Assembly: GCA_025363555.1 (NCBI GenBank)
Contig: JANYDQ010000157.1
Span: forward strand, 2,247 to 66,246
Source of the DNA: Bacteroidota bacterium
GTDB taxonomy: Bacteria > Bacteroidota > Bacteroidia > 2-12-FULL-35-15
Length of the DNA: 64,000 nucleotides
Direction of reading: 5' to 3'
Positions 22,635 to 42,674 of the stretch are shown piece after piece. The position numbers and the translations under genes were made by a program. Each line of letters opens with the position of its first letter. Within the stretch, counting starts at the first letter, position 1. Under the pieces are notes generated by a model. It was not told the origin of the DNA, did no database searches, and saw nothing but the letters and a program-made list of their open reading frames with translations.

Positions 22635-22667
22635 CGGGCGACAGAGAAACTGAAGAACGGGTGACAG
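22635..22667. promoter_or_regulatory. Direct repeat CGGGCGACAG / CGGGTGACAG (23 bp apart) about 35 bp upstream of the Met-rich gene
   Basis: GC-rich 10-mers in an otherwise AT-rich intergenic region. The spacing is about two helical turns. Confidence 0.35.
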
Positions 22668-22700
22668 CGTTACTGAAAAAAAATAAAAATAATAATTATT

Positions 22701-23051: not shown

Positions 23052-23113
23052 CGAAAGTAAGAGTATAATAAGGATTCTGTAATTTTATTGAAAGTTGCAG
23101 AATCCTTTTATCT

Positions 23114-23602
23114 TTGAATAAAATGAAAACAAAATCTAAAAGTATCTTCATTGCATCAACGCCTGAAAAAGTGTTTCAGCAGATGGATGATTTTTCTAAA
23201 ACCGGAATGCATATGACTGAAAGTTCGATGATGATGGGAAGTAAATTGAAGTTGGAACAACTTTCTGCGAATGCAAGCGGTGTAGGTCCTAAATACAGGT
23301 GGTATGGTAAAATGATGGGTATGGTAATGGATTTCAGCGAAACGGTTATGAAGTGGCAACCTCCTGTAATTAAGGAATGGGAGATAGTGGGGGAGGCAAA
23401 AATTATTATAATGTCGTGGTACAGGATGTGGTTTGAAATTTCTCCTGATGAAAATGGAACGGTTGCAAAAATTTCTATCAGTTATTTGCCTCCAAAGGAA
23501 TGGTATTATAAAATTCTTTCTTTCTTTTTTGCAAACTGGTATTGTAACTGGTGTTTGAATAATATGCTAAGTGATACAAAAAGTGCACTGGAAAATAAAT
23601 GA
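23114..23602 (+). CDS. SRPBCC (START/Bet v 1-like) domain protein, hypothetical
   Basis: 162 aa with no signal peptide. Its stop overlaps the next gene's start (ATGA at 23599-23602). Confidence 0.45.
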   Translation: MNKMKTKSKSIFIASTPEKVFQQMDDFSKTGMHMTESSMMMGSKLKLEQLSANASGVGPKYRWYGKMMGMVMDFSETVMKWQPPVIKEWEIVGEAKIIIMSWYRMWFEISPDENGTVAKISISYLPPKEWYYKILSFFFANWYCNWCLNNMLSDTKSALENK

Positions 23603-26346: not shown

Positions 26347-26358
26347 AGAAAAACAAAA

Positions 26359-27636
26359 ATGGTAAAGAAACTAATCGAAATAGCATTACGTAACAGGTTT
26401 ATAGTACTTGTGGTAGCGGCAGGATTGTTCGGATGGGGTATTTATAGTGTAAAAAATAATCCTGTAGATGCTATTCCTGACTTGTCGGAAAATCAGGTTA
26501 TCGTATTTACTGAATGGATGGGTCGCAGTCCGCAGATAATTGAAGACCAAATAACTTATCCGCTTGTAAGTAATTTGCAGGGGATTCCAAAAATAAAAAA
26601 TATACGAGGTACATCAATGTTCGGGATGAGCTTTGTATATGTAATTTTTGAAGATAATGTTGATATATATTGGGCAAGGACTCGCGTAACTGAACGGTTG
26701 AACTTTGCTCAACGGTTGTTGCCGCAAGGTGTTGTACCTTCACTGGGACCTGATGGAACCGGAGTAGGTCACGTTTTTTGGTACACACTGGATGCACCAA
26801 AAATGGATTTGGGCGAACAACGTGCTTTGCAGGATTGGTACATTAAGTTCGGCTTGCAAACTGTAAACGGTGTTGCGGAAGTTGCATCATTCGGTGGTTT
26901 TGAAAAACAGTACCAATTGGTTATTGACCCTTTGAAATTGCAATATTATAAATTATCAATGATGGATGTGATGCACGCTGTGCAGGATAATAATAATGAT
27001 GTAGGCGGAAGAAAATTTGAGATGAGCGATATGGCTTATATTATACGTGGACTTGGTTATATAAAAACAAAAGAAGATTTGGAAGGGATTGCGGTGATTA
27101 ATAATAATGGCATTCCAGTAAGAGTAAAAGATATTGCATCTGTGCAAATGGGTGGTGATTTGAGACTTGGTATTTTTGATGAAAATGGCGGGGGAGAAAA
27201 AGTAGGTGGAATAGTGGTTATGCGGTATGGAGAAAATGCAGACAGGGTAATAAATGCAGTAAAGGAAAAGATGAAAGATTTAGTAAAGGGACTACCGGAG
27301 GGGGTGAAATTCCATACTGCTTATGACAGGAGCAAATTGATTGAAGAAGCAATCGGTTCGGTAAAAGAAACATTGATTGAAGTATTAATTACAGTTTCAT
27401 TAGTAGTGATAATATTTCTATTTCATTGGCGAAGCGCATTAATAATTTTGATTCAACTGCCAATATCTGTAGCGGTAAGTTTTATTTTCCTTCAGGCATT
27501 CGGACTTTCATCTAATATAATGTCGTTAACAGGTATAGCACTGGCAATAGGTGTGGTGGTAGATGATGGTATAGTAATGGTGGAAAATGCGTATCGGCAT
27601 CTATCTGAAGAACAATTAAAAAGAAAGGAAAAATGA
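26359..27636 (+). CDS. CusA/CzcA-family heavy-metal RND efflux pump, N-terminal portion (TM1, periplasmic loop 1, TM2-4) of a split gene
   Basis: 'MVKKLIEIALRNRFIVLVVAAGLFGWGIYS' and '...VVVDDGIVMVENAYRHL' are CusA hallmarks. The ORF ends with an ATGA overlap into the next ORF. Confidence 0.8.
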   Translation: MVKKLIEIALRNRFIVLVVAAGLFGWGIYSVKNNPVDAIPDLSENQVIVFTEWMGRSPQIIEDQITYPLVSNLQGIPKIKNIRGTSMFGMSFVYVIFEDNVDIYWARTRVTERLNFAQRLLPQGVVPSLGPDGTGVGHVFWYTLDAPKMDLGEQRALQDWYIKFGLQTVNGVAEVASFGGFEKQYQLVIDPLKLQYYKLSMMDVMHAVQDNNNDVGGRKFEMSDMAYIIRGLGYIKTKEDLEGIAVINNNGIPVRVKDIASVQMGGDLRLGIFDENGGGEKVGGIVVMRYGENADRVINAVKEKMKDLVKGLPEGVKFHTAYDRSKLIEEAIGSVKETLIEVLITVSLVVIIFLFHWRSALIILIQLPISVAVSFIFLQAFGLSSNIMSLTGIALAIGVVVDDGIVMVENAYRHLSEEQLKRKEK

Positions 27637-29549
27637 GTAATTGGTTTAAAAGAAAACCCGACCTTCTTTCTTCCGAAGAAAGACTAACAATAATTGAAAA
27701 GGCAGCGAAACAAGTTGGCCCGGGAGTGTTTTTTTCAAATATTGTTGTAATAATATCTTTTTTACCTGTTTTCTTACTTACGGGGATGGAAGGGAAATTA
27801 TTCAGTCCTTTGGCGTGGACAAAAACATTTATTCTGTTGGTTGATGCGTTTCTTGCTGTTACTCTTGCTCCTGTTTTGATTTCATTTTTTCTGAAAGGTA
27901 ATTTGAAACCCGAAGGAGCAAACCCAATAGTAAGGGGGTTGGAAAAAGTTTATAAACCTGTTCTGAAATTATGTTTGAACTGGAGAAAGACAACTATTGT
28001 TGTAAATATAATTGCTCTCGTGTTTGCTATCTTTATATTTTCACGATTGGGGTCTGAATTTATGCCACCGCTTGATGAAGGCTCTATTTTATTTATGCCT
28101 GTAACATTACCTGATATTTCAAACTCAGAAGCAAAAAGGCTTTTGCAAGTGCAGGATAAAATTATTAAATCTCTACCCGAAGTTGAAAATGTTTTGGGTA
28201 AGGCAGGGAGAGCGAACACCGCTACTGACAATTCACCCATAAGTATGATTGAAACTGTAATACTTTTGAAACCAAAAACTGAATGGCGAAAAGGTTTTAC
28301 AAAAGACAGCATTATTAATGAATTAAATACTAAGCTTCAAATTCCCGGAATAACAAACGGGTGGACACAACCGATTATTAACCGTATTAATATGCTTTCG
28401 ACAGGAATAAGGACTGATGTAGGAGTTAAAGTTTATGGACAAAACCTTGATACTATATTTTCTTTTTCACAAAAGCTTAAAAAAAGTATAGAAGATATTG
28501 CGGGCATCCAGGATTTATATGTAGAGCCTATTACAGGAGGAAGGTATATTGATATTGTAATTAAAAGAGAAGAAATTGGACGTTACGGGCTTACGGTAAA
28601 TGATGTTAATTCAGTTATAGAAACTGCATTGGGTGGAATGAAACTGACTACTACGATTGAAGGCAGGCAGCGGTTTTCAATTAATGCGCGTTATGGGGAG
28701 GACTTTAGAAACAACCTGACTGCATTAAATCAACTACAAGTTCAGACTATGAATTACGGCCCCATTCCACTCTCTGCTGTTGCGGATATTAAATTATGGG
28801 AAGGACCGCCAATGATAAATTCGGAAAATGCTTTATTGAGAGGAACAATATTATTTAATGTAAGAGGAAGAGATTTAGGCAGCACTGTAACTGAGGCACA
28901 GAAAAAATTAAGTATGATGATTAATAAAATGCCAAAAGGATATTTTATAGAATGGAGTGGGCAATGGGAAAACCAGTTAAGGGCAAATAAAACATTAAAA
29001 CTTATTATGCCTGTTGTTCTTATTTTTATATTCTTTGTTCTCTATTTCACTTATCATTCGGCTAAAGAAGCTATTCTTACAATGATAACTGTTCCATTTG
29101 GATTGATAGGAGGGGTTGTAATGGTTTATTTGTATGACATAAATCTTTCTGTTGCAGTTGCTGTTGGTTTTATTGCTTTATTTGGTATGGCTGTGGAGCT
29201 TGCTATGTTGATGACCATATATCTTAATGAAGCGATGCAAAAATTGGTAAACGATAAAGGAAATTCCAGAGAAACTATATCTACTGATGATTTAAGAGAG
29301 TATATAATAATTGGTGCAACTAAAAGGCTTCGCCCTGTTATTATGACTGTTTCGGTTTCCTTGTTTGGTCTAATTCCTATTTTGTGGGCAACAGGAGTTG
29401 GGAGCGATGTAATGCGCCCGATTACAATTCCTCTTTTGGGAGGGACTATTAGTACAATAGTATTTGTAATGTTCGTAACACCAATAGTACTTGAAATGAC
29501 AAAGGAAAGGGAACTAAAACGCAATGGTAAAATCACTTTAATAGAATGA
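27633..29549 (+). CDS. CusA/CzcA-family heavy-metal RND efflux pump, C-terminal portion (TM5-12, periplasmic loop 2)
   Basis: Continues the CusA alignment ('IIEKAAKQVGPGVFFSNIVVIISFLPVFLLTGMEGKLF'). The two ORFs sum to 1063 aa, about one full CusA. Confidence 0.8.
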   Translation: MSNWFKRKPDLLSSEERLTIIEKAAKQVGPGVFFSNIVVIISFLPVFLLTGMEGKLFSPLAWTKTFILLVDAFLAVTLAPVLISFFLKGNLKPEGANPIVRGLEKVYKPVLKLCLNWRKTTIVVNIIALVFAIFIFSRLGSEFMPPLDEGSILFMPVTLPDISNSEAKRLLQVQDKIIKSLPEVENVLGKAGRANTATDNSPISMIETVILLKPKTEWRKGFTKDSIINELNTKLQIPGITNGWTQPIINRINMLSTGIRTDVGVKVYGQNLDTIFSFSQKLKKSIEDIAGIQDLYVEPITGGRYIDIVIKREEIGRYGLTVNDVNSVIETALGGMKLTTTIEGRQRFSINARYGEDFRNNLTALNQLQVQTMNYGPIPLSAVADIKLWEGPPMINSENALLRGTILFNVRGRDLGSTVTEAQKKLSMMINKMPKGYFIEWSGQWENQLRANKTLKLIMPVVLIFIFFVLYFTYHSAKEAILTMITVPFGLIGGVVMVYLYDINLSVAVAVGFIALFGMAVELAMLMTIYLNEAMQKLVNDKGNSRETISTDDLREYIIIGATKRLRPVIMTVSVSLFGLIPILWATGVGSDVMRPITIPLLGGTISTIVFVMFVTPIVLEMTKERELKRNGKITLIE

Positions 29550-30808
29550 GGAAAACAATATTGACATTTGTATTTGTATTTGTATTCTCTTTATTTTATG
29601 TCAAGGCGCAACGAATGAATATTGATTCTATTCTTTCTGCCATTGACAAACAACATCCTTCAGTAAAAATGTTTGATGCAGATATTGCATCTATGAACGC
29701 TGCTGCCAAAGGAGCGCGAAGCTGGATGCCTCCCGAAGTGGGAGCGGGTTTCTGGATGACACCCTATAACCCGATGATGTGGAAAGCGGATGCAGAAAAT
29801 AATTACAGTGGTATGGGGTCGTTTATGGTTTCGGCTCAACAAATGTTTCCAAATAGAAAACAACAGGATGCTAATTCTGCTTATATGAGTGCAATGTCGT
29901 CAGTGGAAGTGCAAAATAAAAATACTACGCTGAATGATTTATATGCAGAGGCAAGGAAAAATTATTTTGAGTGGGTGGTGTTGAAAAAGAAATCAGCAAT
30001 TATAGAACAGGATTCTGTATTGCTTACCTATATGATTGCTGATGCGGAATTGCGGTTTAAAAATAATATGGAAAAACTTAGTGCTTATTATAAAGCAAAA
30101 GCAGCACTTGGTAATTTGCAAAATATGAAACTGATGGTGCTGAATGAAATGAAGCAAAAACAAATTGCATTAAATACTTTGATGAATAGAAAGGTTACTA
30201 CTTCATTTGATATTGATAGTACTTATCATTTAAAAGATTATTCTGTTTATCATTTTGACAGTACTTTGTTTTCAACAAACCGAACTGATATTATTGCGAT
30301 AGACAAAAATATTACTCTTAACCAACTTCACCTGAAACTGGAGAAAGCGAATTTAAAGCCACAGTTCGGGGTGCGTTATGATAATATGTTTGCGTTTGGG
30401 ACACAGCCTTACCAGTTCTCTTTAATGGGAATGGTGAAAATTCCTATTGCTCCCTGGTCGTCAAAAATGAGCAAAGCAACTATTGAAAGTTTGAAATTAA
30501 AAAATGAGGCATTGCAAAGTGAAAAACAAATGATGATTAATGAATCGAATGGTATGGCAAGTTCGATGTTGAATATGATTGAAACAAAAAAGAAACAAAT
30601 TAAATTATATGAAACTAATATTATTCCTGCTTTAAAAAACAATTACAAAACTATGGAGTTGGGTTATGAGCAAAATACAGAAGAGTTGTTTATGTTGTAT
30701 GATGCGTGGGAATCATTAAATATGACACAACTTGATTATTTAGACCAGTTGCAACAATTATTAACAATGCAAACAGAACTGGATAAAATTCTCCAATTGA
30801 AAAAATGA
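29546..30808 (+). CDS. TolC-family outer membrane efflux protein (CusC-like)
   Basis: Signal peptide present. 420 aa with coiled-coil heptads typical of the outer membrane efflux protein family. Both ends have ATGA overlaps with neighbouring genes. Confidence 0.75.
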   Translation: MRKTILTFVFVFVFSLFYVKAQRMNIDSILSAIDKQHPSVKMFDADIASMNAAAKGARSWMPPEVGAGFWMTPYNPMMWKADAENNYSGMGSFMVSAQQMFPNRKQQDANSAYMSAMSSVEVQNKNTTLNDLYAEARKNYFEWVVLKKKSAIIEQDSVLLTYMIADAELRFKNNMEKLSAYYKAKAALGNLQNMKLMVLNEMKQKQIALNTLMNRKVTTSFDIDSTYHLKDYSVYHFDSTLFSTNRTDIIAIDKNITLNQLHLKLEKANLKPQFGVRYDNMFAFGTQPYQFSLMGMVKIPIAPWSSKMSKATIESLKLKNEALQSEKQMMINESNGMASSMLNMIETKKKQIKLYETNIIPALKNNYKTMELGYEQNTEELFMLYDAWESLNMTQLDYLDQLQQLLTMQTELDKILQLKK

Positions 30809-32052
30809 AAACAATAAAAGAAATATTGAATTCATTTTTTGTTTTGTTTTTTGCAATGCAACTGATTTCCTGTGGGCAAAATGAAAAGTCTTCAAGGCAA
30901 GATACTATAAATGATATGCAGGGTATGGATATGGGTGATAAAAAAACAAAGCAAGATACAATGCCAGATATGGATATGGGAGATAAAAAAGAAAAGAGTG
31001 AACTTGTAAACCGTCCGTCTGCAACTATTTCATTGAATGATGTGATTAAACCAACAAATAAATTTGTGCTTACTTCTTTACCACTTACAACATTACAACA
31101 ACTAACAAATAAAGTTGATTTGCAATTTTATGGAATTGTAAATTATAATGAAAAAGATGCAGAAATAATTTCTTCGCGTGTGTCGGGAAGGATTGATAAG
31201 CTATATTTAAAATATCGTTTTGAAAGTATTTCAAAAGGAGAAAAGTTAATGGAAATATACAGTCCCGAATTGGTAACAGCACAACAGGATTTACTTTTTA
31301 TTTTAAATAATGATGCCGGAAATAATTCGCTTATTGAATCAGCAAAACAAAAACTACTGTTACTTGGAATGAATGAAATGCAGTTAAATGAGCTTATACA
31401 TAAGAAAACCATTAAGAATACGATTACTATTTACAGTAATTACTATGGACATATTCACGAATCGGGAGAAAAGGCTTCAATGAATAATATGGAACCTGTA
31501 ATGAATACTGCTAGCGAAATTACACAACCTCTTTCATTAAAAGAAGGAATGTATGTTACCAAAGGACAGCAGTTATTTATGATTTACAACCCTGACAATG
31601 CGTGGATTCTTGCAAACGTATTTCCTGAACAACAACCTTATGTTCATAAAGGAGATGTTGTATATGTGAGTTCGGGTACTGATTCCTCCAATCTATTTTC
31701 AGGGAAGATTGATTTTATAGAGCCTCAATATAGGGATGGAAACAAAACATTAACTGTGAGAATTAATTTTGATAATGCTTCTTTAAAATTTCCGATTGGC
31801 GGCAGGGTGAAAGTAGAAGAAAAAAATATAGCTATAAGTGGTGCGTGGCTTGCTACTTCCAGCATTCTTTCTCTTGGAAAAGATAAGGTGGTTTTTGTGA
31901 AATCAGGGAATGGTTTTGTTGCAAGAAAAATTAATGTGAACTATTCAACTTTGGAAAAATCTCTTGTGAATGGTGATTTTTCTTCAAAAGATTCAGTTGT
32001 TCTTAATGCTCAATATTTAATTGACAGTGAAAGTTTCATTAAAGTAAAATAA
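30805..32052 (+). CDS. Efflux RND periplasmic adaptor (CusB-like) with lipoprotein signal and Met-rich tandem N-terminal repeat
   Basis: 'LISCGQ' lipobox, a 'DMQGMDMGDKK...MPDMDMGDKK' repeat, and a biotinyl-lipoyl plus beta-barrel adaptor core. Confidence 0.8.
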   Translation: MKTIKEILNSFFVLFFAMQLISCGQNEKSSRQDTINDMQGMDMGDKKTKQDTMPDMDMGDKKEKSELVNRPSATISLNDVIKPTNKFVLTSLPLTTLQQLTNKVDLQFYGIVNYNEKDAEIISSRVSGRIDKLYLKYRFESISKGEKLMEIYSPELVTAQQDLLFILNNDAGNNSLIESAKQKLLLLGMNEMQLNELIHKKTIKNTITIYSNYYGHIHESGEKASMNNMEPVMNTASEITQPLSLKEGMYVTKGQQLFMIYNPDNAWILANVFPEQQPYVHKGDVVYVSSGTDSSNLFSGKIDFIEPQYRDGNKTLTVRINFDNASLKFPIGGRVKVEEKNIAISGAWLATSSILSLGKDKVVFVKSGNGFVARKINVNYSTLEKSLVNGDFSSKDSVVLNAQYLIDSESFIKVK

Positions 32053-32055
32053 AAA

Positions 32056-33240
32056 ATGCTGCGTTATCTTTTCCTAATTTCATTTTTGTTTTTTGTTGGT
32101 TGCAAACCTAAAAACATTAAACAGGTAACTGAAAATAAAGTTTATTATACCTGTTCAATGCACCCACAGGTGAGGAAAGACAAGCCAGGGAAATGCCCTA
32201 TTTGTGGAATGGAATTGCATCCTGTAAGTATTCAGAAAAATATTTTATCAGATGAAATTTATTTGAATGAACAACAAATTCTGTTGGGAAATATTAAAGC
32301 AGACACACTTCATACTGAAAATATTGGTGAAGCTACTACTCTTGTTGCGACAGTAAATACGAATACTGATAATACAAGTTCTATAAGTTCGAGGGTGATG
32401 GGAAAAATTGAAAAACTTTATTTCAAGACCAAAGGTGATTATATTAATAAAGGTGATAAACTTTATGACATTAACAGCGAAGACTTAAATATAGCGAAAC
32501 AGCAATATTTACTTGCCTTGGAGAAAACAAAACAACCGCACAATGATTTTGTTGATGCAAAGCAATTAATTGAATCTGCAAAAAACAAATTGCTTTTGTA
32601 TGGAATTAGTGAGGAACAATTAAAAGATATTTCATCGTTTCCTGTAACAACTATATCAAGTTTGGCAAGCGGATATATTATAGAGTTGGCAACTAAAGAA
32701 GGTGATTATATTATGCAGGGTGCTGTTGTTTTTAAAATTGCAAACCTTACTACTTTATGGGTGGAAGCACAGGTTTACCCAACACAATTGAAAGACATTT
32801 ATAAAAATGCAGAAGCTATTGTTACATTTCCTGATTTTTCTGACAAATCATTTACAGGCAAAATTGATTTTATAAATCCTGAATTAAACAGCGGAACGCA
32901 ACTTGATTTAATTCGTGTGGAAATTCCAAACAAAGATTTATTGATAAAACCCGGAATGGCTGCAATAGTGAATTTAAAACATCATCTTCACAAAGCATTT
33001 GCTTTGCCTGTTGATGCTGTTATTCGTGATAGTAAAGGGGCAATTGTATGGGTACAAACTTCATCAAATACATTCAAAAGCCGAATGATAAAAACAGGAA
33101 TTGAATCGGGAGATAAGATTGAAATCATTTCTGGAATAATGGAAGGTGATGTAATTGTAACAAGCGGAGCATACTTACTTAATAGCGAATATATATTCAA
33201 GAAAGGTAAAAACAGTAGTATGGAAGGAATGAAAATGTAA
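32056..33240 (+). CDS. Efflux RND periplasmic adaptor (CusB-like) with N-terminal CxxC heavy-metal-binding domain
   Basis: 'YYTCSMHPQVRKDKPGKCPICGMEL' N-terminal module followed by an adaptor core. Confidence 0.8.
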   Translation: MLRYLFLISFLFFVGCKPKNIKQVTENKVYYTCSMHPQVRKDKPGKCPICGMELHPVSIQKNILSDEIYLNEQQILLGNIKADTLHTENIGEATTLVATVNTNTDNTSSISSRVMGKIEKLYFKTKGDYINKGDKLYDINSEDLNIAKQQYLLALEKTKQPHNDFVDAKQLIESAKNKLLLYGISEEQLKDISSFPVTTISSLASGYIIELATKEGDYIMQGAVVFKIANLTTLWVEAQVYPTQLKDIYKNAEAIVTFPDFSDKSFTGKIDFINPELNSGTQLDLIRVEIPNKDLLIKPGMAAIVNLKHHLHKAFALPVDAVIRDSKGAIVWVQTSSNTFKSRMIKTGIESGDKIEIISGIMEGDVIVTSGAYLLNSEYIFKKGKNSSMEGMKM

Positions 33241-33265
33241 ATTATTTGAAAGATTAAAATTAAAA

Positions 33266-35284
33266 ATGGAACACGAACATACACACAATCATTCACAACA
33301 TAGTATGAATGCGCCAATGGGAATGGCGGGGCATAATCATCATAAAATGATGGTTGATGATTTTAAGAAAAGGTTTTATATAACCCTTATTATAACTGTG
33401 CCTGTAATGCTGCTTTCGCCAATGATTCAGCTATGGTTTCATTTTTCAATTGCGTTTAAAGGTTCCGCTTATTTATTGTTGTCACTTTCTACAGTTGTTT
33501 TCTTTTATGGTGGAATGCCTTTCCTGAAAGGTTTGGCGGATGAATTAAAGCAAAGGGCATTAGGAATGATGACTTTGATTGCTGTTGCTATTACTGCTGC
33601 TTATGCTTATAGTGTGGCTACTGTGTTTGGTTTGGCAGGGATGGATTTCTTTTGGGAGCTGTGTACATTGATTTTAATAATGTTGCTTGGTCACTGGATA
33701 GAAATGAAATCGGTGGCGGGTGCGTCAAGGGAACTGGAATTGCTTGTTCAGTTGATGCCTTCGGATGCACATATGATAATGGGAGAAATGATTCACGAAG
33801 TAAAAACAGATTCGTTAAAAGAAGGTGATTTGATTTTGATAAAGTCGGGAGAAAAGGTTGCTGCTGATGGAATAATTTTGGAAGGTGAAAGTTATTTGAA
33901 TGAATCAATGTTAACAGGGGAATCCGTGCCTGTAAAAAAAATTAAAGATGATAAAATAATTGCAGGTTCTATTAATGGTAGTGGCTCGCTGAAAGTAACG
34001 GTTACTCATTCTTCAAAAGATTCTTATTTATCAAGGGTTATTAAGTTGGTGGATGATGCTCAAAAAACAAAATCAAAAACTCAATTGCTTGCTGATAAAG
34101 CTGCGAAAATTCTAACTATTGTTGCTTTGGTGGCAGGTTTTTCTACTTTCTTTTTCTGGTGGTTAGTGGCAAAGGAACCAATAGTATTTGCATTGGAAAG
34201 AATGGTAACAGTGATTGTGATTTGTTGTCCTCACGCTTTGGGATTGGCTGTGCCGTTGGTGGTTGCCATCTCAACTTCTCTTTCTGCAAAGAATGGTTTG
34301 CTGATAAAAAACAGGACTGCCTTTGAGAACGCAAGAAAAATCACTACAATTATTTTTGATAAAACCGGAACGCTGACTTATGGGAAATTTGAAGTGGCAA
34401 GAATAGTGAGCCTTACTGCTAACATTGATGAAAAAGAAATTGTTCGCATTGCATCGGCATTGGAACAAAACTCTGAACATCCTATTGCAACGGGTATTAT
34501 TGCAAAAGCAAAAGAATTTTCTGTTGCGATTCCTTCTGTAAGTAGTTTTAATTCCCTGACAGGTAAAGGAATTGAAGCTGTGGTGGAAGGAAAAAATATT
34601 AAAGTTGTAAGCCCGGGTTATCTGAAAGAAAATAAAATTGCGTTACCTGAAAATTATTCAGGTACGAATGCTGAAACAATTGTGTTTGTGATTATCAATG
34701 ATGAATTGGCGGGTTATATTGCATTGGCTGATAAAATTAGAAGTGAATCTGCGGAAGCAATCAGAACACTTCACGAAAATAATATTAAATCACTATTGCT
34801 AACGGGAGATAATGCGATGGTGGCAAAGAGTGTAAGCGATGAATTAAAGATGGATGGATTCTTTGCCGAAGTGTTGCCACATCAGAAGTTGGAAAAAATA
34901 AAGGAGTTGCAAAATAAAGGTGAATTTGTGGCAATGACGGGAGATGGTGTGAATGATGCACCTGCCCTGGCGCAAGCCGATATTGGTATTGCGGTTGGGA
35001 GTGGTAGCGACATTGCAGCAGAAACCGCAGGAATAGTTTTGGTAAATAGTAATCCGCAGGATATAGCAAGTTTAATTTTGTTTGGTAAAGCAACTTATAA
35101 AAAGATGATTCAGAATTTAATTTGGGCAACAGGATATAATGTAATTGCTTTGCCCCTTGCGGCTGGTGTACTTTATAAATGGAACATAATGTTAAGCCCT
35201 GCAATGGGTGCTGTACTTATGAGTTTAAGCACTATTGTGGTTGCTATAAATGCAAAAATGCTGAAAGTAAAATCGGTTAAATAA
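33266..35284 (+). CDS. Heavy-metal (copper) translocating P1B-type ATPase, CopB-like (His-rich N-terminus, CPH motif)
   Basis: N-terminus 'MEHEHTHNHSQHSMNAPMGMAGHNHHKMM'. Also 'CCPHALGLAVP', DKTGTLT and GDGVNDAPALAQADIGIAVG. Confidence 0.9.
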   Translation: MEHEHTHNHSQHSMNAPMGMAGHNHHKMMVDDFKKRFYITLIITVPVMLLSPMIQLWFHFSIAFKGSAYLLLSLSTVVFFYGGMPFLKGLADELKQRALGMMTLIAVAITAAYAYSVATVFGLAGMDFFWELCTLILIMLLGHWIEMKSVAGASRELELLVQLMPSDAHMIMGEMIHEVKTDSLKEGDLILIKSGEKVAADGIILEGESYLNESMLTGESVPVKKIKDDKIIAGSINGSGSLKVTVTHSSKDSYLSRVIKLVDDAQKTKSKTQLLADKAAKILTIVALVAGFSTFFFWWLVAKEPIVFALERMVTVIVICCPHALGLAVPLVVAISTSLSAKNGLLIKNRTAFENARKITTIIFDKTGTLTYGKFEVARIVSLTANIDEKEIVRIASALEQNSEHPIATGIIAKAKEFSVAIPSVSSFNSLTGKGIEAVVEGKNIKVVSPGYLKENKIALPENYSGTNAETIVFVIINDELAGYIALADKIRSESAEAIRTLHENNIKSLLLTGDNAMVAKSVSDELKMDGFFAEVLPHQKLEKIKELQNKGEFVAMTGDGVNDAPALAQADIGIAVGSGSDIAAETAGIVLVNSNPQDIASLILFGKATYKKMIQNLIWATGYNVIALPLAAGVLYKWNIMLSPAMGAVLMSLSTIVVAINAKMLKVKSVK

Positions 35285-35330
35285 ATCTCCAAAGGAGGAA
35301 ATAGTTTTTTCTTATTAAATAAAAAATAAT

Positions 35331-35338
35331 TACCTTTG
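35331..35338 (+). promoter_or_regulatory. -7 box TACCTTTG abutting the second HYC_CC_PP-like gene
   Basis: Same octamer as at 17493-17500. A probable GTG start lies at 35348. Confidence 0.4.
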
Positions 35339-35758
35339 TTGCGTAAAGTGAAAATTAAAAAGATCATATCAAAAAACATTAGCTGCTTATTACTTGTTGT
35401 AATGACATATATGCACATTTGTTCTGCTTTTTGTGCAACGGGAGTCGATTTTTGTTGCAGCGAAGGTGATGAAGGCAACAATTGTGAAAAATCCTGTTCC
35501 GCACAAGAAGAAAAATCTGCCAACCCAAAACCTGACTGCCAGGACCTTCATTTTTCATTTTTCAATGCAACCGGACAATACGCATTTGCAAAAAGTATTG
35601 ATACTGTAAAAGTGTTTTTTACAATTGTTCAAATTGTAACTCCTATATTAAATATACTTCCCGTTTCGCATAGAGAAGATATTTTTGCTTTTAATGGTTT
35701 TCATCCCCCACCCCCAAAATCCGATATAAGAATTTTTATCAATAGTTTCCTGATTTGA
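35336..35758 (+). CDS. Small Cys-rich protein, HYC_CC_PP-like (MHIC, CC, PPPP)
   Basis: 'LLLVVMTYMHICSAFC...DFCCSE...GFHPPPPKSD' is a paralog of the 17500 gene. The ORF-track start is TTG at 35336. The start is more likely GTG at 35348 (MKIKKIISKN...). Confidence 0.45.
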   Translation: MLRKVKIKKIISKNISCLLLVVMTYMHICSAFCATGVDFCCSEGDEGNNCEKSCSAQEEKSANPKPDCQDLHFSFFNATGQYAFAKSIDTVKVFFTIVQIVTPILNILPVSHREDIFAFNGFHPPPPKSDIRIFINSFLI

Positions 35759-35779
35759 TTTTTTTAATATTTTAATTCA

Positions 35780-35804
35780 CACGGCAGAATATTTTCTGAC
35801 CGTG
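35780..35804 (+). terminator. Weak hairpin downstream of the HYC_CC_PP-like gene
   Basis: CACGGCAG...CTGACCGTG imperfect inverted repeat with a T-run 8 nt later. Confidence 0.3.
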
Positions 35805-35874
35805 CAGGACTTTTTATTGTCAATTCAATAAAAATAAATAAAAATAAATTCTTATTATAAAATTAAATCAAACA

Positions 35875-37062
35875 ATGAAAAAACAAATTACTTTGATGGC
35901 AGTACTTTTAGTAGTACTTAATTCTCTCCTTTTTGGACAAGTAGGTTGGACACAAAAGGCAAATTTCCCTGGGGCAGCACGTTATCACGCTGTAAGTTTT
36001 ACAATTGGAAACAAGTTGTATGTTGGCACAGGTTGGAATAATAGTGTTTACTACAACGATTTTTATGAGTATGACCCTTCAACAGATACCTGGACTGCAA
36101 AAGCAAACTTCCCAGGTGTGGCACGTTATGCAGCATCTGCATTCAGTATTGGTAGCAAAGGGTATGTAGGATGTGGAAGAGTGGGAAGTACTTATTACAA
36201 TGATTTTTATGAATACGACCCCAGCACCGATACGTGGGCAATAAAAGCAAATTTTATTGGTACATCAAGGCATCACCCTATTGGGTTTTCCATTGGTACA
36301 AAAGGATATATGGGGATAGGACAGAATAGTAGTTTACTAAACGATATGTATGAATATGACCCTGTAGCGAATAGCTGGACACAGAAATCAAACTATGGCG
36401 GCACTGCACGACACGCTGCTGTTGCTTTTGTGATTGACAGTAATGCGTATGTTGGTTGTGGTTATATAGGTACTGGTTATACAAATGATTTTTGGAAATA
36501 TAATCCTATAACGGATGTTTGGACACAAATTGCAAATTATGCAGGCAATGGCAGAGAACACGATATTGGTTTTGCAATTGGTGGTTTGGGTTATGTAGGT
36601 AATGGATATGCTACAACTGGCGATACAAAAGATTTTTATGAATATGACCCAATAGGGAATGTGTGGACACAAAAAGCGGATTTTGGAGGTACGGTGCGTG
36701 AAGGCGCTGTAGGTTTGAGTATTGGTACAAATGGATATGTAGCTACTGGTTGGGATGGCACTAATAGAAAAGATTTGTGGGAGTATTCAACCGTTTCTGG
36801 TATTCCTGAAATATTAAATTCATCATCAATAAATGTTTTTCCTAATCCTTCAAATGGTGAATTCAATGTTGAGTTGCCTTCTGCAAATACATTACCTTCC
36901 GAAATTATTATTACAGATATATTAGGTAAAAAATTACAGTCAATTAATTGGAATGGAAAGGATGAAACAATGAAGCTAAAAACTAATCTTAATTCGGGAA
37001 TTTATTTTTTGAAAATAAAAAATAAGGAGCAAATTATAACTAAAAAAGTAATTATAAACTAA
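35875..37062 (+). CDS. Kelch-repeat beta-propeller protein with T9SS C-terminal sorting domain
   Basis: Six or more 'Y.G.G......ND...YDP..D.W' Kelch blades. C-terminus 'VFPNPSNGEFNVEL...GIYFLKI..KKVIIN'. Confidence 0.75.
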   Translation: MKKQITLMAVLLVVLNSLLFGQVGWTQKANFPGAARYHAVSFTIGNKLYVGTGWNNSVYYNDFYEYDPSTDTWTAKANFPGVARYAASAFSIGSKGYVGCGRVGSTYYNDFYEYDPSTDTWAIKANFIGTSRHHPIGFSIGTKGYMGIGQNSSLLNDMYEYDPVANSWTQKSNYGGTARHAAVAFVIDSNAYVGCGYIGTGYTNDFWKYNPITDVWTQIANYAGNGREHDIGFAIGGLGYVGNGYATTGDTKDFYEYDPIGNVWTQKADFGGTVREGAVGLSIGTNGYVATGWDGTNRKDLWEYSTVSGIPEILNSSSINVFPNPSNGEFNVELPSANTLPSEIIITDILGKKLQSINWNGKDETMKLKTNLNSGIYFLKIKNKEQIITKKVIIN

Positions 37063-37068
37063 ATCAAA

Positions 37069-38106
37069 ATGAAAAAAATAATCATCGTTACATTGGTGTT
37101 GCTGATTACAGCAACTACACAAACGACTTATGCACACAATCATCATCCTACAATGAAAATGACAGCATCTGATTCGCTGATGCAAAAGGAAATGGCAGAA
37201 CATCAGCAAATGGAAGCTGTTACTGATTTTCCGAATTATCATCCGTTGATAGTTCATTTCCCGATTGTGTTATTATTAATGTCAGTTGCATTTCAGTTGC
37301 TGTCATTCTTTTTTTTCAAAAGGGAATTCAGCATCGTTACACTTATTCTTTTGGCACTCGGTGTAATCACAGCGTGGCTTGCATCCAATACATTTCATGC
37401 AATGCCAGGTACATTAACTGGAAGTGCAAAAGAAATTTTTGCCATTCACGAACAAATGGCATCGCTTACTTGGTGGTTTTCTCTTATTGCTTTGTTGATA
37501 AAAATTCCTTCACATTTCTACTTCTTAAGAAAATGGTGGATAGAAGGTTTGGTAGCACTATTGCTGATTGCATCAGCAGTTACTGTTTCCATTGCAGGAC
37601 ATCACGGTGCAATGCTTGTTTATTTGCAGGGAATAGGACCACAAGGCAAATATTTAGGTGAGTATAAATTTACTGAAAAAGGTGCTGAAACCGCTACGCA
37701 ACCGATGAATATGGAAAAATCGGAAAATGAAAAAAAAGCAAACAAAGGAGGGGAACAGGAGGAAAACCATCATGTGGGTGAACTTGGCAAAGGACCGCAT
37801 GAAGGAACTATTGAAGAGGCAGACCCTTACCATATTGAAATTGTTGCTGATAACAACGACCTCATTTTTTATTTGTTAGATGGTGATGCAAAACCGATTG
37901 ATATGAAAAATGTAACTGGTAACGTGAAGATGCTATACGAAAATAAGAAAAGTAAAACCATTGAACTTATGGAAATGGACAGCAAACAAACAGCGATGCA
38001 AGCTCTCAACGGACAATTATTTACGGCAACTTGCACTTTGACTAAAAACGGAAAATCGTATTCTGCATCTTTTGATAGTAAAAAAGATTTGTTTGAAAAG
38101 AAATAA
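37069..38106 (+). CDS. Membrane protein with DUF2231-like N-terminal domain (HPLIVHFPIVLL) and soluble His-containing C-terminal domain
   Basis: Signal peptide, four TM helices with an HP..VHFPI motif, then a ~150-aa hydrophilic domain. Confidence 0.5.
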   Translation: MKKIIIVTLVLLITATTQTTYAHNHHPTMKMTASDSLMQKEMAEHQQMEAVTDFPNYHPLIVHFPIVLLLMSVAFQLLSFFFFKREFSIVTLILLALGVITAWLASNTFHAMPGTLTGSAKEIFAIHEQMASLTWWFSLIALLIKIPSHFYFLRKWWIEGLVALLLIASAVTVSIAGHHGAMLVYLQGIGPQGKYLGEYKFTEKGAETATQPMNMEKSENEKKANKGGEQEENHHVGELGKGPHEGTIEEADPYHIEIVADNNDLIFYLLDGDAKPIDMKNVTGNVKMLYENKKSKTIELMEMDSKQTAMQALNGQLFTATCTLTKNGKSYSASFDSKKDLFEKK

Positions 38107-38132
38107 TTCGCAAATAAATAAAACAATTCAAA

Positions 38133-40727
38133 ATGAAAAAACATATTTCAATAACACTCTTCCTTATCATTTATTCCGGAGCATCTGCACAGGATATGAA
38201 GATGAAAGAAATAAAGGAACAACAGCAGCCTGTAACCTACACCTGTCTAATGCATCCTGAAATACACGCTGCAAAACCAGGCAAATGCCCTAAATGCGGG
38301 ATGACTTTGGTAAAGGAAAAAACAAAGGCAGTAAAACAACCTGCCAAAGAAAACCCCAACGATGGTGTAATGAAAGCACCAGCAAAGGATTCTGTAAAAA
38401 AAACAGAAAATAAAATGGGCGAAATGAATATGGACGATATGGGAAATAGGCAAATGAAGGATATGGAAAAGCCAAAAGCTGAACCTATGAAAACAATAGT
38501 AAATAAAACGCCTCTGCATAGCGTTCGTTACGATTTATACATAAGGGATACCACGGTAAATTTTTCCGGCAAAACAAAAAGAGCTATTGCTGTGAACGGA
38601 CAAATACCTATGCCAACCCTTACTTTTACGGAAGGCGATACAGCAGAAATATATGTACACAATCAATTAAAGGAAGAAACAGCGATGCACTGGCACGGTA
38701 TATTTTTACCCAATCAATACGATGGTGTGCCTAACCTTACCCAAATGCCAATAAAACCGCATACCACGCATTTGTATAAATTTCCAATTATACAGCACGG
38801 CACGCATTGGTATCACAGTCATTCGGGCTTGCAGGAACAAATAGGTATGTATGGTTCCTTTATAATGAATAAAAGGGAAGAACTGGCTATACCTACAATT
38901 CCAATTATTTTAAGTGAATGGACGGATATGAATCCAAAAAATGTACACCGTATGCTGCATAATGCCACCGATTGGTTCGCTATTAAAAAAGGAACAACAC
39001 AAAGTTATGCCGAGGCAATAAAAAAAGGTTATTTGAAAACCAAATTAACCAACGAATGGAAACGAATGAATGCAATGGATGTAAGCGATGTGTTTTATGA
39101 TAAATTTTTAATCAATGGTAAAAATCAAAACGAACAACCACAATTTAAAGCTGGCGATAAGGTAAGGTTACGAATAGCAAACGGTGGTGCATCAGATTAT
39201 TTCTGGCTTACGTATGCCGGCAGCAAAATTACAGTAGTAGCAAGTGACGGCAATGATGTGGAGCCGGTGGATGTGGATAGATTACTGATTGCGGTTTCCG
39301 AAACGTATGATGTAATAGTTACCATTCCTGAAAATATGAGTTATGAATTTTTGGTTACGCCTGAAGACCGCACCAAATCAGCTTCGCTATGGCTGGGGAG
39401 CGGAATGAAAATGCGGGCAACTCCCTTACCCAAATTAAAATATTTTGAAGGTATGAAAATGATGAACAGTATGATGAAGATGAACGGAGATTTGGATGAT
39501 ATGGGAATGCAAATGAGCCTGAACAAAATGGATATGAACTCCGTGATGTACCCTGAAATAACAGGTGAGGAACAACCCGGAAAGAAAAGTAAGGATGGCA
39601 ATATGAATATGGGTGATATGAAAATGCAGGATATGAAAATGAATGTGAGGGATACCAATCATTATGCTAAAGAAGGCGATCAGCACGAACTTGTTACTTT
39701 GAATTACGGAATGCTGAAATCGCCTGCTAAAACAAACCTGCCGAAAGACGCGCCTGTAAAGGAAATAAGTTTTGAACTTACCGGGAATATGAACCGATAT
39801 GTGTGGAGCATGGATAATAAAGTAATTTCAGAAGCAGATAAAATTTTAATTAAGAAAGGGGAAAATGTACGTATCATCCTTCATAATAACTCTATGATGC
39901 GCCACCCAATGCATCTGCACGGGCACGATTTCCGTTTGTTAAACGGGGAAGGAGATTATGCACCATTGAAAAACATTGTGGATATTATGCCTATGGAAAC
40001 AGACACCCTGGAATTTAATGCCAATGTATATGGCGATTGGTTTTTTCATTGCCACATTCTTTACCATATGATGAGCGGAATGGGCAGGGTATTTACTTAT
40101 GAAAACCAACCTGCCAATCCTGAAATACCCAACCCGAAATTAGCACAACGAAAACTATTTGCAGATGATAGAAAATTTCATTTTATGACAAAGGTTGGTA
40201 TTGAAACTAATGGCAGCGATGGTGAAGCTATGTTTGCTCAAACCCGCTGGAAAGTTAGCACGCTATGGCATTTGGGATATCACGATGAACACGGATACGA
40301 AAGTGAAACAATGATAGGGAGGTACTTTGGAAAAATGCAATGGCTGTATCCTTATGTTGGTTTTGATTATCATTATAAACGAGTAACCGGCCCACACGAA
40401 GTTCAGAACATTTTCCGGGGCGAGCAGACCAACTGGTTAGGTCAAACGAGCAATAAAAATAACCGTCATACGGCAGTGGTGGGCGTGGTCTATATACTGC
40501 CTATGCTGTTTGTAATAGATGGCAGGATGGACGGGGACGGAAAGTTCAGGTTACAATTAAGCCGCGAAGATATACCTGTTACCAAACGCCTGCGTTTCGG
40601 GGTTATGATAAATACAGACAAAGAATATATGGCTGGTTTCAGGTACATTGCTACACAATACCTGAGTTTAGGAACCCACTATGACAGTGATATGGGATGG
40701 GGCGGTGGTGTAACTTTTACTTACTAA
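38133..40727 (+). CDS. Multicopper oxidase (CopA-like) with N-terminal CxxC metal-binding domain, Met-rich inserts and C-terminal beta-barrel-like (PcoB/CopB-like) extension
   Basis: 'TYTCLMHPEIHAAKPGKCPKCGMTL' module. MCO motifs HWHG, WYHSH, HPMHLHGH and HCHILYHMMSGM. Met-rich tracts 'MKMMNSMMKMNGDLDDMGMQM...NMNMGDMKMQDMKMN'. About 210 extra C-terminal residues end in '...GGGVTFTY'. Confidence 0.85.
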   Translation: MKKHISITLFLIIYSGASAQDMKMKEIKEQQQPVTYTCLMHPEIHAAKPGKCPKCGMTLVKEKTKAVKQPAKENPNDGVMKAPAKDSVKKTENKMGEMNMDDMGNRQMKDMEKPKAEPMKTIVNKTPLHSVRYDLYIRDTTVNFSGKTKRAIAVNGQIPMPTLTFTEGDTAEIYVHNQLKEETAMHWHGIFLPNQYDGVPNLTQMPIKPHTTHLYKFPIIQHGTHWYHSHSGLQEQIGMYGSFIMNKREELAIPTIPIILSEWTDMNPKNVHRMLHNATDWFAIKKGTTQSYAEAIKKGYLKTKLTNEWKRMNAMDVSDVFYDKFLINGKNQNEQPQFKAGDKVRLRIANGGASDYFWLTYAGSKITVVASDGNDVEPVDVDRLLIAVSETYDVIVTIPENMSYEFLVTPEDRTKSASLWLGSGMKMRATPLPKLKYFEGMKMMNSMMKMNGDLDDMGMQMSLNKMDMNSVMYPEITGEEQPGKKSKDGNMNMGDMKMQDMKMNVRDTNHYAKEGDQHELVTLNYGMLKSPAKTNLPKDAPVKEISFELTGNMNRYVWSMDNKVISEADKILIKKGENVRIILHNNSMMRHPMHLHGHDFRLLNGEGDYAPLKNIVDIMPMETDTLEFNANVYGDWFFHCHILYHMMSGMGRVFTYENQPANPEIPNPKLAQRKLFADDRKFHFMTKVGIETNGSDGEAMFAQTRWKVSTLWHLGYHDEHGYESETMIGRYFGKMQWLYPYVGFDYHYKRVTGPHEVQNIFRGEQTNWLGQTSNKNNRHTAVVGVVYILPMLFVIDGRMDGDGKFRLQLSREDIPVTKRLRFGVMINTDKEYMAGFRYIATQYLSLGTHYDSDMGWGGGVTFTY

Positions 40728-41120
40728 GTTTGAAATTTAAATTAATATTAGGTGAAAATTTAGAATACTGGCGCTTGGATATGAATTTAGTTGGCGTTAC
40801 ATTTTGATAAAACGTTTATCTGTTTGGGCAAGTTACAATTCTCGCTTTGGTGGCTGGTTCACTTTTTCTTATTAGGATTGACACTGTTTGTAATATCATT
40901 TAAAAGTAAAATAAGATTGATTTACATCGTTTAGCCGAACAAACTCCTTTCTCCGTAAATAGTTTGGTCGAAAGTTTTTTGCTTTTTTGCCTAACCATCC
41001 CCATGCCTCAAAACCAATTTGTCCTTTATTAGCTTTCAAAAAACATTTATTAACAATTGAAGTTTACCGCCATTGCCTTGTAAAAATTCCTACTTTTGTG
41101 AGGGAAATTTTAAAAAATAA

Positions 41121-42674
41121 ATGAGCGATTTAAAAAAGATTAAAAATGCACTGATATCAGTGTATTACAAGGATAATTTGGAAGTGGTGGTACGTCAGTT
41201 GAATTTGCTGGGGGTGAAAATATACAGTACCGGGGGAACGCAGGAATTTATTGAAAAGCTGGGTGTTGCCGTAATTCCTGTGGAATCCTTAACTTCTTAT
41301 CCTTCTATTTTGGGAGGAAGAGTAAAAACTCTGCACCCTAAAGTTTTTGGTGGAATATTGAGCAGACGGGAATTACAGATCGATATTGACCAGATGGAAG
41401 AATACGAAATTCCTGAAATAGATTTAGTAATAGTGGACTTATATCCTTTTGAAGAAACTGTTAAATCAGGGGCATCCGAACAATCTATTATTGAGAAAAT
41501 TGATATTGGGGGAATTTCGTTGATTCGTGCCGCAGCCAAAAATTTCAATGATGTAGTAATTATTCCCTCTAAAAACGAATACAAATTTCTGCACGATACC
41601 ATTTTAGTGGATCAAAAAGGTTCATCGACCGCTGAAGACAGGAAAAAGTTGGCGGGAAAAGCATTTAATGTTTCTTCGCATTACGATACTGCCATTTTTA
41701 ATTACTTTAACGGTAACGATTCTGTTGCTTTCAAACACAGTATTCAAAATGCAAGTGTATTGCGTTATGGAGAAAATCCTCATCAAAAGGGGGTTTTTTA
41801 TGGTAACCTGGAAGAAATGTTTACCAAGATAAGCGGAAAGGAATTGTCGTATAATAACCTGCTGGATGTGGATGCAGCAGTAAGCCTGATAGCTGAATTC
41901 TCTCCTGCTCTGGGGGGTAAGACCGGAGAGGGGTTCACCTTTGCCATTCTTAAACATAACAACGCATGTGGAATTGCAACTCGACCCACACTGGTGGATG
42001 CATGGAAAGGCGCATTGGCAGGAGACCCCACCAGTGCATTCGGGGGAGTATTAATTGTCAATACCACGGTGGACGAAGCAACTGCAACAGAAATAAATAA
42101 ATTATTTTTCGAAGTTATTATTGCTCCTGCCTATCAAGAAAAGGCTTTGAAAATATTGAAAACAAAACCAAACAGAATTATTCTAATTCAAAAGAAAGTT
42201 AAACTTACGCCTAAATCTTTCCGAACTTTATTGAATGGTGTAATTGAGCAGGAGAAAGATTCGAAAACGGAAACAGATGCCGATATGCAAACGGTTACCA
42301 AAACTTCTCCAACTGCTGATGAGAAGCGAGATTTGGAGTTTGCAAACAAAATTGTGAAACACACCAAATCAAATACCATTGTACTTGCAAAAAACAACCA
42401 GTTACTTGCAAGCGGTGTAGGGCAAACATCAAGGGTAGATGCACTGGAACAAGCAGTTGCGAAGGCAAAGAAATTCGGATTCGACCTGCAAGGCTCAGTA
42501 ATGGCTTCTGATGCATTTTTTCCATTCCCGGATTGTGTAGAAATAGCCCATAATGCAGGGATTACGGCTGTAATTCAACCGGGAGGTTCCATTAAAGATA
42601 AAGATTCTGTTGCCTATTGTGATGCAAACGGAATATCAATGGTAATGACCGGAACCAGGCATTTTAAACATTAA
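41121..42674 (+). CDS. purH: Bifunctional AICAR transformylase / IMP cyclohydrolase
   Basis: N-terminal MGS-like domain 'ALISVYYKDNL...GVKIYSTGGT' and the AICARFT domain. Confidence 0.95.
   Translation: MSDLKKIKNALISVYYKDNLEVVVRQLNLLGVKIYSTGGTQEFIEKLGVAVIPVESLTSYPSILGGRVKTLHPKVFGGILSRRELQIDIDQMEEYEIPEIDLVIVDLYPFEETVKSGASEQSIIEKIDIGGISLIRAAAKNFNDVVIIPSKNEYKFLHDTILVDQKGSSTAEDRKKLAGKAFNVSSHYDTAIFNYFNGNDSVAFKHSIQNASVLRYGENPHQKGVFYGNLEEMFTKISGKELSYNNLLDVDAAVSLIAEFSPALGGKTGEGFTFAILKHNNACGIATRPTLVDAWKGALAGDPTSAFGGVLIVNTTVDEATATEINKLFFEVIIAPAYQEKALKILKTKPNRIILIQKKVKLTPKSFRTLLNGVIEQEKDSKTETDADMQTVTKTSPTADEKRDLEFANKIVKHTKSNTIVLAKNNQLLASGVGQTSRVDALEQAVAKAKKFGFDLQGSVMASDAFFPFPDCVEIAHNAGITAVIQPGGSIKDKDSVAYCDANGISMVMTGTRHFKH

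Follow-up and report, generated by a model that had tools for sequence, protein, structure and literature searches.

Can a periplasmic multicopper oxidase be joined in one polypeptide to an outer-membrane β-barrel, and if so, does such a protein correspond to the copper-resistance proteins PcoA/CopA and PcoB/CopB? This question is raised by a gene in a stretch of 64,000 nucleotides from a Bacteroidota bacterium (GenBank assembly GCA_025363555.1, contig JANYDQ010000157.1, positions 2,247 to 66,246), which is referred to here as the window. The gene is an open reading frame (ORF) of 864 amino acids that runs uninterrupted from ATG to stop at 38133..40727 on the + strand. An initial annotation, made from the letters alone, had read it as a four-module protein that starts with a signal peptide and a heavy-metal-binding module, continues with Met-rich inserts and a multicopper oxidase and ends in a region resembling an outer-membrane barrel, possibly of the PcoB/CopB type. 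The analysis reported here indicates that the gene is probably the single-chain equivalent of the proteobacterial pair of PcoA/CopA and PcoB/CopB, including the copper pathway proposed below. The protein is built from the following parts:

38133..38189, + strand: Sec-type signal peptide (residues 1-19, MKKHISITLFLIIYSGASA), read from the sequence; cleavage site placed by eye before Q20, between MKKHISITLFLIIYSGASA and QD
38238..38315, + strand: HMBD heavy-metal-binding module (residues 36-61; Pfam PF19335, E 3.6e-11), YTCLMHPE...KPGKCPKCGM
38322..38522, + strand: Lys/Met-rich linker, probably disordered (residues 64-130; 12% Met; predicted local distance difference test score, pLDDT, <50 in the full-length model)
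38544..38879, + strand: multicopper oxidase cupredoxin domain 1, Cu-oxidase_3 (residues 138-249; Pfam PF07732, E 1.6e-42), HWHG at 186 and WYHSH at 226
39045..39350, + strand: multicopper oxidase cupredoxin domain 2, Cu-oxidase (residues 305-406; Pfam PF00394, E 1e-18)
39405..39692, + strand: Met-rich insert between oxidase domains 2 and 3 (residues 425-520; 21% Met), within the single TIGR01480 alignment
39759..40109, + strand: multicopper oxidase cupredoxin domain 3, Cu-oxidase_2 (residues 543-659; Pfam PF07731, E 2.2e-28), HPMHLHG at 591 and HCHILYHMMSGM at 639
40110..40178, + strand: linker and short helix directly before the barrel (residues 660-682, helix ~668-680; AlphaFold2 tail model, helix at model residues 15-27, pLDDT 67-77)
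40179..40724, + strand: modelled 12-stranded outer-membrane β-barrel, probably a distant relative of CopB/PcoB (residues 683-864; AlphaFold2, Foldseek, amphipathic strands, β-signal GVTFTY)

The four-module anatomy is borne out by the Pfam domains, by the alignment to the NCBIfam model TIGR01480 and by the structural model of the tail. The signal peptide and the CLMHP...CPKCGM module are found at the start of the protein as annotated. The HMBD match passes its threshold (43.2 bits vs a cutoff of 23.6), and the ligand pattern C38-x-M-H41...C52-x-x-C55 falls into columns that are invariant in alignment A2, in which the following linker is poorly conserved. All three oxidase domains score above their Pfam thresholds (PF07732, PF00394 and PF07731 with 145, 68 and 99 bits vs cutoffs of ~21), and the four copper-ligand motifs HxHG, HxH, HxxHxH and HCHxxxHxxxxM are all present at the residues listed; those of domain 3 supply ligands of the type 1 (T1) and trinuclear copper sites. 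The Met-rich tracts of the kind known from CopA were confirmed as well, the two segments listed standing against a baseline of 3% Met in residues 131-424, i.e., oxidase domains 1 and 2. The best NCBIfam match is TIGR01480 (copper_res_A, copper resistance system multicopper oxidase), which covers residues 125-654 end to end in one alignment with a score of 385.5 bits, below the curated cutoff of 478.95. An alignment with PcoA covers 98% of the oxidase part at 35% identity, and cuprous oxidase activity is the predicted function of the window protein.

Beyond the last oxidase domain the chain continues for ~205 residues up to the terminus ...GGGVTFTY, in agreement with the long extension that had been annotated. 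Relatives of this tail are numerous (667 in the database at E<=1e-3), the last oxidase domain is present as well in nearly all those of sufficient length, and an alignment of 41 tail sequences with 63-77% identity (A1) has 45 invariant columns. AlphaFold2, run with the 41-sequence alignment, returned a model with a mean pLDDT of 85.8 and a predicted TM-score (pTM) of 0.75, in which a short helix is followed by 12 β-strands connected mostly by very short turns. A Foldseek search against the PDB gave nine matches at E<=1e-3, all of them outer-membrane barrels, natural or designed, with PcoB (7pge; E 1.2e-4, TM 0.43-0.45) at the top and the 12-stranded KdgM, VhGalP and NanC porins next (4fqe, E 2e-4; 2wjq, E 9e-4). 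Each of the 12 strands in the model is amphipathic, its alternate faces differing in hydrophobicity. On the polar side lie most of the invariant residues, in tail numbering E72, D92, H94, D143, R145, D147, R153, Q155, R168, N174, R184, H196 and D198, and the invariant motifs NTDKEY and HYDSDM sit in short loops on the putative extracellular side. The C-terminus fits a β-signal (G206-V-T-F209-T-Y211 in tail numbering, with Gly at -5 and aromatic residues at -2 and 0); G206 is invariant, and the terminal Tyr is found in at least 90% of the A1 sequences and replaced by F, W, L or I in remoter relatives.

Residues 683-864 are confidently modelled as a 12-stranded transmembrane β-barrel, and the outer-membrane barrel of the initial annotation was recovered in the AlphaFold2 model, the fold matches, the strand pattern and the β-signal. 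A soluble extra domain or a disordered segment, a reading that the tail's lack of any Pfam or NCBIfam match might favor, is very improbable: the model shows 12 strands with confidence and neither a fourth cupredoxin domain nor disorder, the fold matches are solely membrane barrels, all strands are amphipathic and end in a β-signal, and six of 26 diverse relatives match the generic outer-membrane barrel family OMP_b-brl, although below threshold (best E 0.0019). A C-terminal sorting domain of the type IX secretion system (T9SS) was considered and rejected, as the Por_Secre_tail model matches three other proteins of the window and not the oxidase.

How this barrel relates to CopB/PcoB was addressed with more divergent sequences. 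An exhaustive profile search through 1.84 billion representative proteins yielded 321 tail relatives at E<=1e-3, including far more divergent fused proteins. Three of ten divergent relatives that were scanned match PF05275 (CopB) below threshold, with E-values of 7e-5 to 2e-3 and colinear with the Pfam model. When the 26 diverse tails of alignment A3 (mean column identity 34%) were each scanned singly against Pfam, PF05275 was matched sub-threshold by six of them (best E 1.9e-5; 18-23 bits where scores are listed), which makes it the most frequent non-oxidase family, tied with OMP_b-brl but with the better best E-value. A3 was also compared by hhalign with a CopB alignment consisting of E. coli PcoB, 113 CopB sequences from Pseudomonas and enterobacteria and three from alpha- and beta-proteobacteria. 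The resulting match is colinear and in register over 101 columns (Prob 62%, E 7.6e-5); it places the near-invariant Glu of the motif SRED on PcoB E207, and in the hairpin that follows, the motifs T-D-x-E and R-Y align with CopB as well. In PcoB, E207 is one half of the D97-E207 constriction that binds Cu(II), and the exchange D97K lowers Cu(II) binding and flux (PMC9210255). Equivalents of the second acidic pair of PcoB, E130-E223, were not recovered in this alignment; many other invariant Asp, Glu and His residues line the modelled lumen. The His/Met-rich disordered region that precedes the barrel in PcoB/CopB was not found, its place being taken by oxidase domain 3 and the ~25-residue linker.

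Several observations weigh against the assignment of the gene as a single-chain PcoA-PcoB equivalent. The tail has no match in Pfam or NCBIfam, and PF05275, with a gathering threshold of 27 bits, does not match the window protein at all. A narrow profile of close homologues (A1) searched against PDB sequences gave a chance match alone (E 1.3), and the same profile aligned by hhalign to the single PcoB sequence reached a Prob of 0.2%. An initial hhalign comparison with a narrow CopB alignment produced an out-of-register match of 10%, which probably reflects the similarity of hairpin repeats and was not used. An equivalent of PcoB D97 was not recovered in the A3 alignment with CopB. The fold likeness to PcoB is modest, at the TM values given above with a root-mean-square deviation of 6.6 A, and barely above that to the KdgM/NanC porins. 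The full-length AlphaFold2 model (pLDDT 48, pTM 0.29) is too poor to judge domain orientation, oxidase-barrel contacts or whether the helix lies in the pore. Finally, in the literature that could be searched no experimental work on localisation, activity or flux of any member of the fused family was found.

Taken with these points, the fold, the Pfam matches of the relatives and the profile-profile alignment, three weak lines, make it probable though not proven that the tail shares ancestry with CopB/PcoB; it is the modest fold similarity to PcoB, close to that for KdgM/NanC, that keeps this conclusion at probable. Of the PcoB/CopB likeness in the initial annotation, the part that stood is the convergence of weak sequence signals with PcoB as top fold, while a PF05275 match in the window protein itself did not appear. 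Formal membership of the tail in PF05275 is not established, and a 'CopB domain' label would derive from relatives, profiles and fold, since the window protein lies below every PF05275 threshold.

When one genome for each GTDB species was scanned, at least 579 were found to encode the tail. Most records that bear a name are Bacteroidota (Chitinophagaceae, Sphingobacteriaceae and Saprospiraceae), and a few metagenome-assembled genomes (MAGs) are labelled Ignavibacteriae, Chlorobiaceae or Pseudomonadota. For a comparison of loci, 80 tail-encoding loci were taken with 6 kb on either side. At all 80 the tail and oxidase sequence lie in the same ORF; 73 of these ORFs are full length (747-1027 aa) and come from different species genomes; the others are shorter, mostly at contig ends, and include the 227-aa ORF described below. 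A CopB profile search identified no separate copB within 6 kb of any of the 80 loci, and in the window the oxidase gene is followed by purH, so that the separate copB/pcoB gene whose presence the initial annotation had suggested looking for was not found in these related loci. The same four-module layout is seen in 120 protein clusters of 65-77% identity; NCBI also contains one entry with 100% identity to the window protein. Based on these sequence comparisons (one ORF at every locus, the number of genomes and clusters, and the absence of a nearby CopB), the fusion is obligatory among the loci examined, native and selected, and it is the norm in Bacteroidota.

In proteobacterial genomes the stop of copA and the start of copB share a 4-nt overlap, which makes a fusion genetically easy to reach. 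The same overlap could suggest that the long ORF is an artefactual join of adjacent copA and copB genes, since one indel from a sequencing or assembly frameshift could connect them. This explanation has next to no probability and is refuted by the comparative data: the same unbroken ORF is present in 73 full-length loci of independent genomes and in the 120 clusters, and the junction HCHILYHMMSGM-GRVFTYEN... is conserved. The number of HMBD copies varies from 0 to 4 among fused orthologues (loci L053, L054, L065 and L033), which suggests that the metal-capture arm gains and loses modules rapidly. Some clusters of ~1100 aa bear additional zinc-ribbon-like Pfam matches (PF03119, PF13878, PF24292). 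Plasmid-borne homologues were found in Flavobacterium, Ornithobacterium, Pontibacter and Hymenobacter; the Flavobacterium plasmid protein WP_264563272.1 is 62% identical over 751 residues including the barrel, and its gene adjoins those of a P-type ATPase and CusA.

In one MAG (locus L047, 1320-2003, with 1.3 kb of contig upstream) the barrel was called as an ORF of 227 aa whose start, MMSGMGRVF, lies within the last oxidase motif. Of the oxidase it keeps no more than the final residues; a frameshift or pseudogenisation is the probable origin of this copy, which would not be a true stand-alone gene. Short 'hypothetical proteins' at NCBI, such as a 217-aa protein of Puia sp. P3, resemble this ORF. 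The stand-alone homologue P0139, in contrast, has 217 aa and a signal peptide of its own (L086, 5001-5654; GCA_021201335.1, contig JAJQFD010000033.1); its gene is flanked by those for a fused MsrB-MsrA methionine sulfoxide reductase and for a transporter of the major facilitator superfamily (MFS), with no oxidase adjacent. The existence of at least one version with its own signal peptide identifies the barrel as an autonomous module, and its context without copper genes means that the barrel is not obligatorily a copper pore and suggests that the barrel family has roles beyond copper.

The export signal fits this picture. The N-terminus of the window protein shows neither a twin arginine nor a lipobox Cys, and no twin arginine occurs within residues 1-35 of any of the 73 full-length fused orthologues or the 120 protein clusters, while one is present in all three unfused PcoA/CopA proteins checked (E. 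coli PcoA and two sphingomonad CopA). The twin-arginine translocation (Tat) pathway exports folded proteins, whereas a barrel has to arrive unfolded at the β-barrel assembly machinery (BAM). A Sec signal without a Tat motif is therefore what would be expected of a true oxidase-barrel fusion. Export by Sec implies that the oxidase is folded and metallated in the periplasm and, if the fused proteins indeed switched from Tat to Sec, that both steps take place wholly in this compartment.

From these elements the following mechanism can be proposed. The precursor would leave the cytosol unfolded via Sec, as the signal peptide and the missing Tat motif suggest, and BAM would insert the C-terminal ~180 residues as a 12-stranded outer-membrane barrel; the fold is that of the model, and both ends would be periplasmic because the number of strands is even. 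The three-domain oxidase would fold and take up copper in the periplasm, tethered below the outer membrane by the ~25-residue linker and the helix. HMBD and Met-rich tracts may capture Cu(I), supplied in this genomic island by the neighbouring P1B ATPase and Cus-type pump, and would pass it to the T1 site, where, judging from the biochemistry of CueO, PcoA and CopA, it would be oxidised to Cu(II). The lumen with its invariant Asp, Glu, His and Arg residues may form a Cu(II)-selective path through the outer membrane beside the oxidase, in analogy to PcoB, and the direction of flux through the barrel would be as unsettled as it is for PcoB.

The main rival to a copper channel is a barrel that conducts nothing, its lumen being closed by a network of salt bridges, and merely anchors the oxidase to the outer membrane, on its inner side, or aids its loading into vesicles. 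Such an anchor is unlikely, although it deserves consideration: the barrel is small (~180 residues) with short strands, invariant Arg and Asp/Glu residues of the lumen could pair, the homology to the PcoB pore is partial with the E207 equivalent alone recovered, and the stand-alone P0139 adjoins MsrAB and the MFS transporter rather than copper genes. The conservation of the barrel is, however, well above what a passive anchor would need, with many of the 45 invariant columns facing the lumen or lying at the extracellular rim (HYDSDM, NTDKEY), and for PcoB, the nearest structural match, conduction of Cu(II) has been shown in liposomes (PMC9210255).

The fusion may also be read as a natural Rosetta stone for PcoA-type oxidases and PcoB-type barrels, which would then form one physical unit: Cu(I) would be oxidised where the pore opens, and the Cu(II) produced would cross the outer membrane by direct transfer. 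We consider this tentative, with somewhat less than an even chance; if it is true, the gene offers a tractable single-gene system to settle the direction and mechanism of PcoB transport. An extreme variant, in which the barrel exports the oxidase to the surface in the manner of an autotransporter, is less likely. In that case barrel and preceding helix would constitute a type Va-like autotransporter displaying the oxidase on the cell surface for the oxidation of external Cu(I) or other substrates. The order of passenger, helix and C-terminal 12-stranded barrel formally matches, as does export by Sec, and the barrels of intimin and AIDA-I occur low in the fold list. AIDA-I reaches only a prob of 0.25 (E 0.017), however, whereas PcoB and the KdgM-type porins lead, and the 26 diverse tails contain no PF03797 match at E<=1 and a single YadA_anchor match (E 0.056). 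Moreover, autotransporter β-domains are much longer than the ~180-residue barrel, a three-domain enzyme with four coppers would be an unlikely passenger, and surface proteins of this genome are served by T9SS sorting domains (the three Por_Secre_tail proteins of the window), which the oxidase lacks. Surface display of this kind is accordingly improbable. The phylum-wide covalent fusion constitutes independent evolutionary evidence for joint action of oxidase and barrel at the outer membrane, and it provides a one-gene construct in which localisation, copper loading after Sec export and flux can be tested.

The oxidase-barrel gene closes a metal-resistance block of the window, which also includes a DUF3347 protein and a P-type ATPase (Pfam, window ORFs), and the gene is thereby associated with copper/silver efflux genes. 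The main neighbours are:

26359..33240, + strand: CusCBA-type efflux cluster of the resistance-nodulation-division (RND) type (Pfam ACR_tran, OEP, HlyD_D23, HMBD)
26359-27636 and 27633-29549, + strand: CusA as two ORFs (Pfam ACR_tran)
29546-30808, + strand: outer-membrane factor (Pfam OEP)
30805-32052 and 32056-33240, + strand: two CusB-like adaptors, the second with an HMBD (Pfam HlyD_D23, HMBD)
33266..35284, + strand: heavy-metal P1B ATPase with His-rich N-terminus (Pfam E1-E2_ATPase, Hydrolase)
37069..38106, + strand: DUF2231 membrane protein (Pfam PF09990, E 3.6e-8), ending 26 nt upstream of the oxidase gene

The two halves of the CusA/CzcA-type pump comprise 425 aa (ACR_tran 2-422) and 638 aa (418-1016) and overlap by 4 nt (ATGA) within a run rich in A (AAAAGAAAGGAAAAATGAG); a natural split, a homopolymer frameshift or a sequencing error could each account for this. 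Between the P1B ATPase and a Kelch gene lies an ORF of 140 aa (35336-35758) with no Pfam match and a Cys-rich stretch, CSAFCATGVDFCCSEGDEGNNCEKSC, which may encode a small metal-binding protein. The Kelch gene (35875-37062) encodes a Kelch-repeat β-propeller protein with a T9SS C-terminal sorting domain and has no obvious explanation inside the metal block; two further Por_Secre_tail proteins are encoded upstream, at 18049-18660 and 18699-20954. His residues are frequent at the N-terminus of the DUF2231 protein (HNHHPTMKM), several more are found in its soluble C-terminal domain, and its gene may be co-transcribed with the oxidase gene. The genes downstream of the oxidase gene are housekeeping genes, purH being followed, by sequence, apparently by mreBCD and a PBP2. 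Examination of the window ORFs between 18 and 43 kb identified neither pcoC nor pcoD. A sigma-70 promoter and terminator scan near the gene performed, for promoters, no better than on shuffled sequences, with a scan model that does not cover Bacteroidota promoters. The GC skew is positive throughout 22000-42000 (0.10-0.33), all family-matched ORFs of at least 120 aa are on the + strand, and the whole metal island is co-oriented.

Among soluble oxidases, the periplasmic cuprous oxidase CueO of E. coli is like the window protein in its three cupredoxin domains and copper-ligand motifs, and it likewise has a Met-rich segment tied to Cu(I) delivery. It differs in being soluble, exported by Tat and devoid of a barrel, and the NCBIfam CueO model scores the window protein with 113 bits vs a cutoff of 525. 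The KdgM/NanC porins resemble the window barrel in size and strand number and form the second tier of fold matches, yet they are sugar-acid channels without a link to copper and without a sequence-profile signal; their similarity is probably a generic trait of small 12-stranded barrels.

The closest known systems are the pairs PcoA and PcoB of the plasmid-borne pco system of E. coli (7PGE), CopA and CopB of Pseudomonas syringae and PcoAB of Caulobacter vibrioides. PcoA/CopA and the window protein have in common a three-domain multicopper oxidase with a Met-rich region, at the 35% identity to PcoA given above. As modelled, the barrel resembles PcoB in having 12 strands, short loops and an acidic interior and in being the functional partner of the oxidase. 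The barrel of PcoB has 12 strands, both termini in the periplasm and short loops (PMC9210255), and in Caulobacter the N-terminal region of PcoB stabilises PcoA, a direct docking of the two proteins having been proposed and not demonstrated (PMC12509749). The direction of transport through PcoB is disputed, with import (PMC9210255) and efflux (PMC12509749) both put forward. In pco and cop systems oxidase and barrel are likewise always co-encoded, in Proteobacteria as separate genes with the 4-nt overlap, whereas the window protein unites them in one polypeptide, carries a Sec-type instead of a Tat signal and has an N-terminal HMBD in addition; its barrel, unlike CopB/PcoB, stays below the PF05275 threshold.

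The statement of the initial annotation that such an arrangement had not been described did not hold, as a porin-like region with PcoB resemblance is on record and the architecture occurs in the at least 579 species genomes mentioned above. A 2024 study (PMC11213822) ascribes porin-like character and a certain resemblance to PcoB to the C-terminal residues 611-809 of G2EDV6, a multicopper oxidase of Bizionia argentinensis, whose junction HCHILYHMMSGMARVVSYDT, taken from the supplementary alignment of that study, matches the fused family and continues where PcoA ends. In a TCDB survey the CopB family 1.B.76 has an entry for Bacteroidetes, where its size is given as 424 +/- 265 aa, a spread that would fit long, possibly fused members. 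In RefSeq the fused proteins are named only 'multicopper oxidase domain-containing protein'; thousands of such Bacteroidota entries would carry an unannotated outer-membrane barrel, which merits a profile model of its own. The Flavobacterium plasmid protein WP_264563272.1 has the same fused architecture without the N-terminal HMBD segment, its alignment starting at window residue 131. Compared with these relatives, the window gene is an ordinary, unstudied member of a known single-chain PcoA-PcoB-like architecture.

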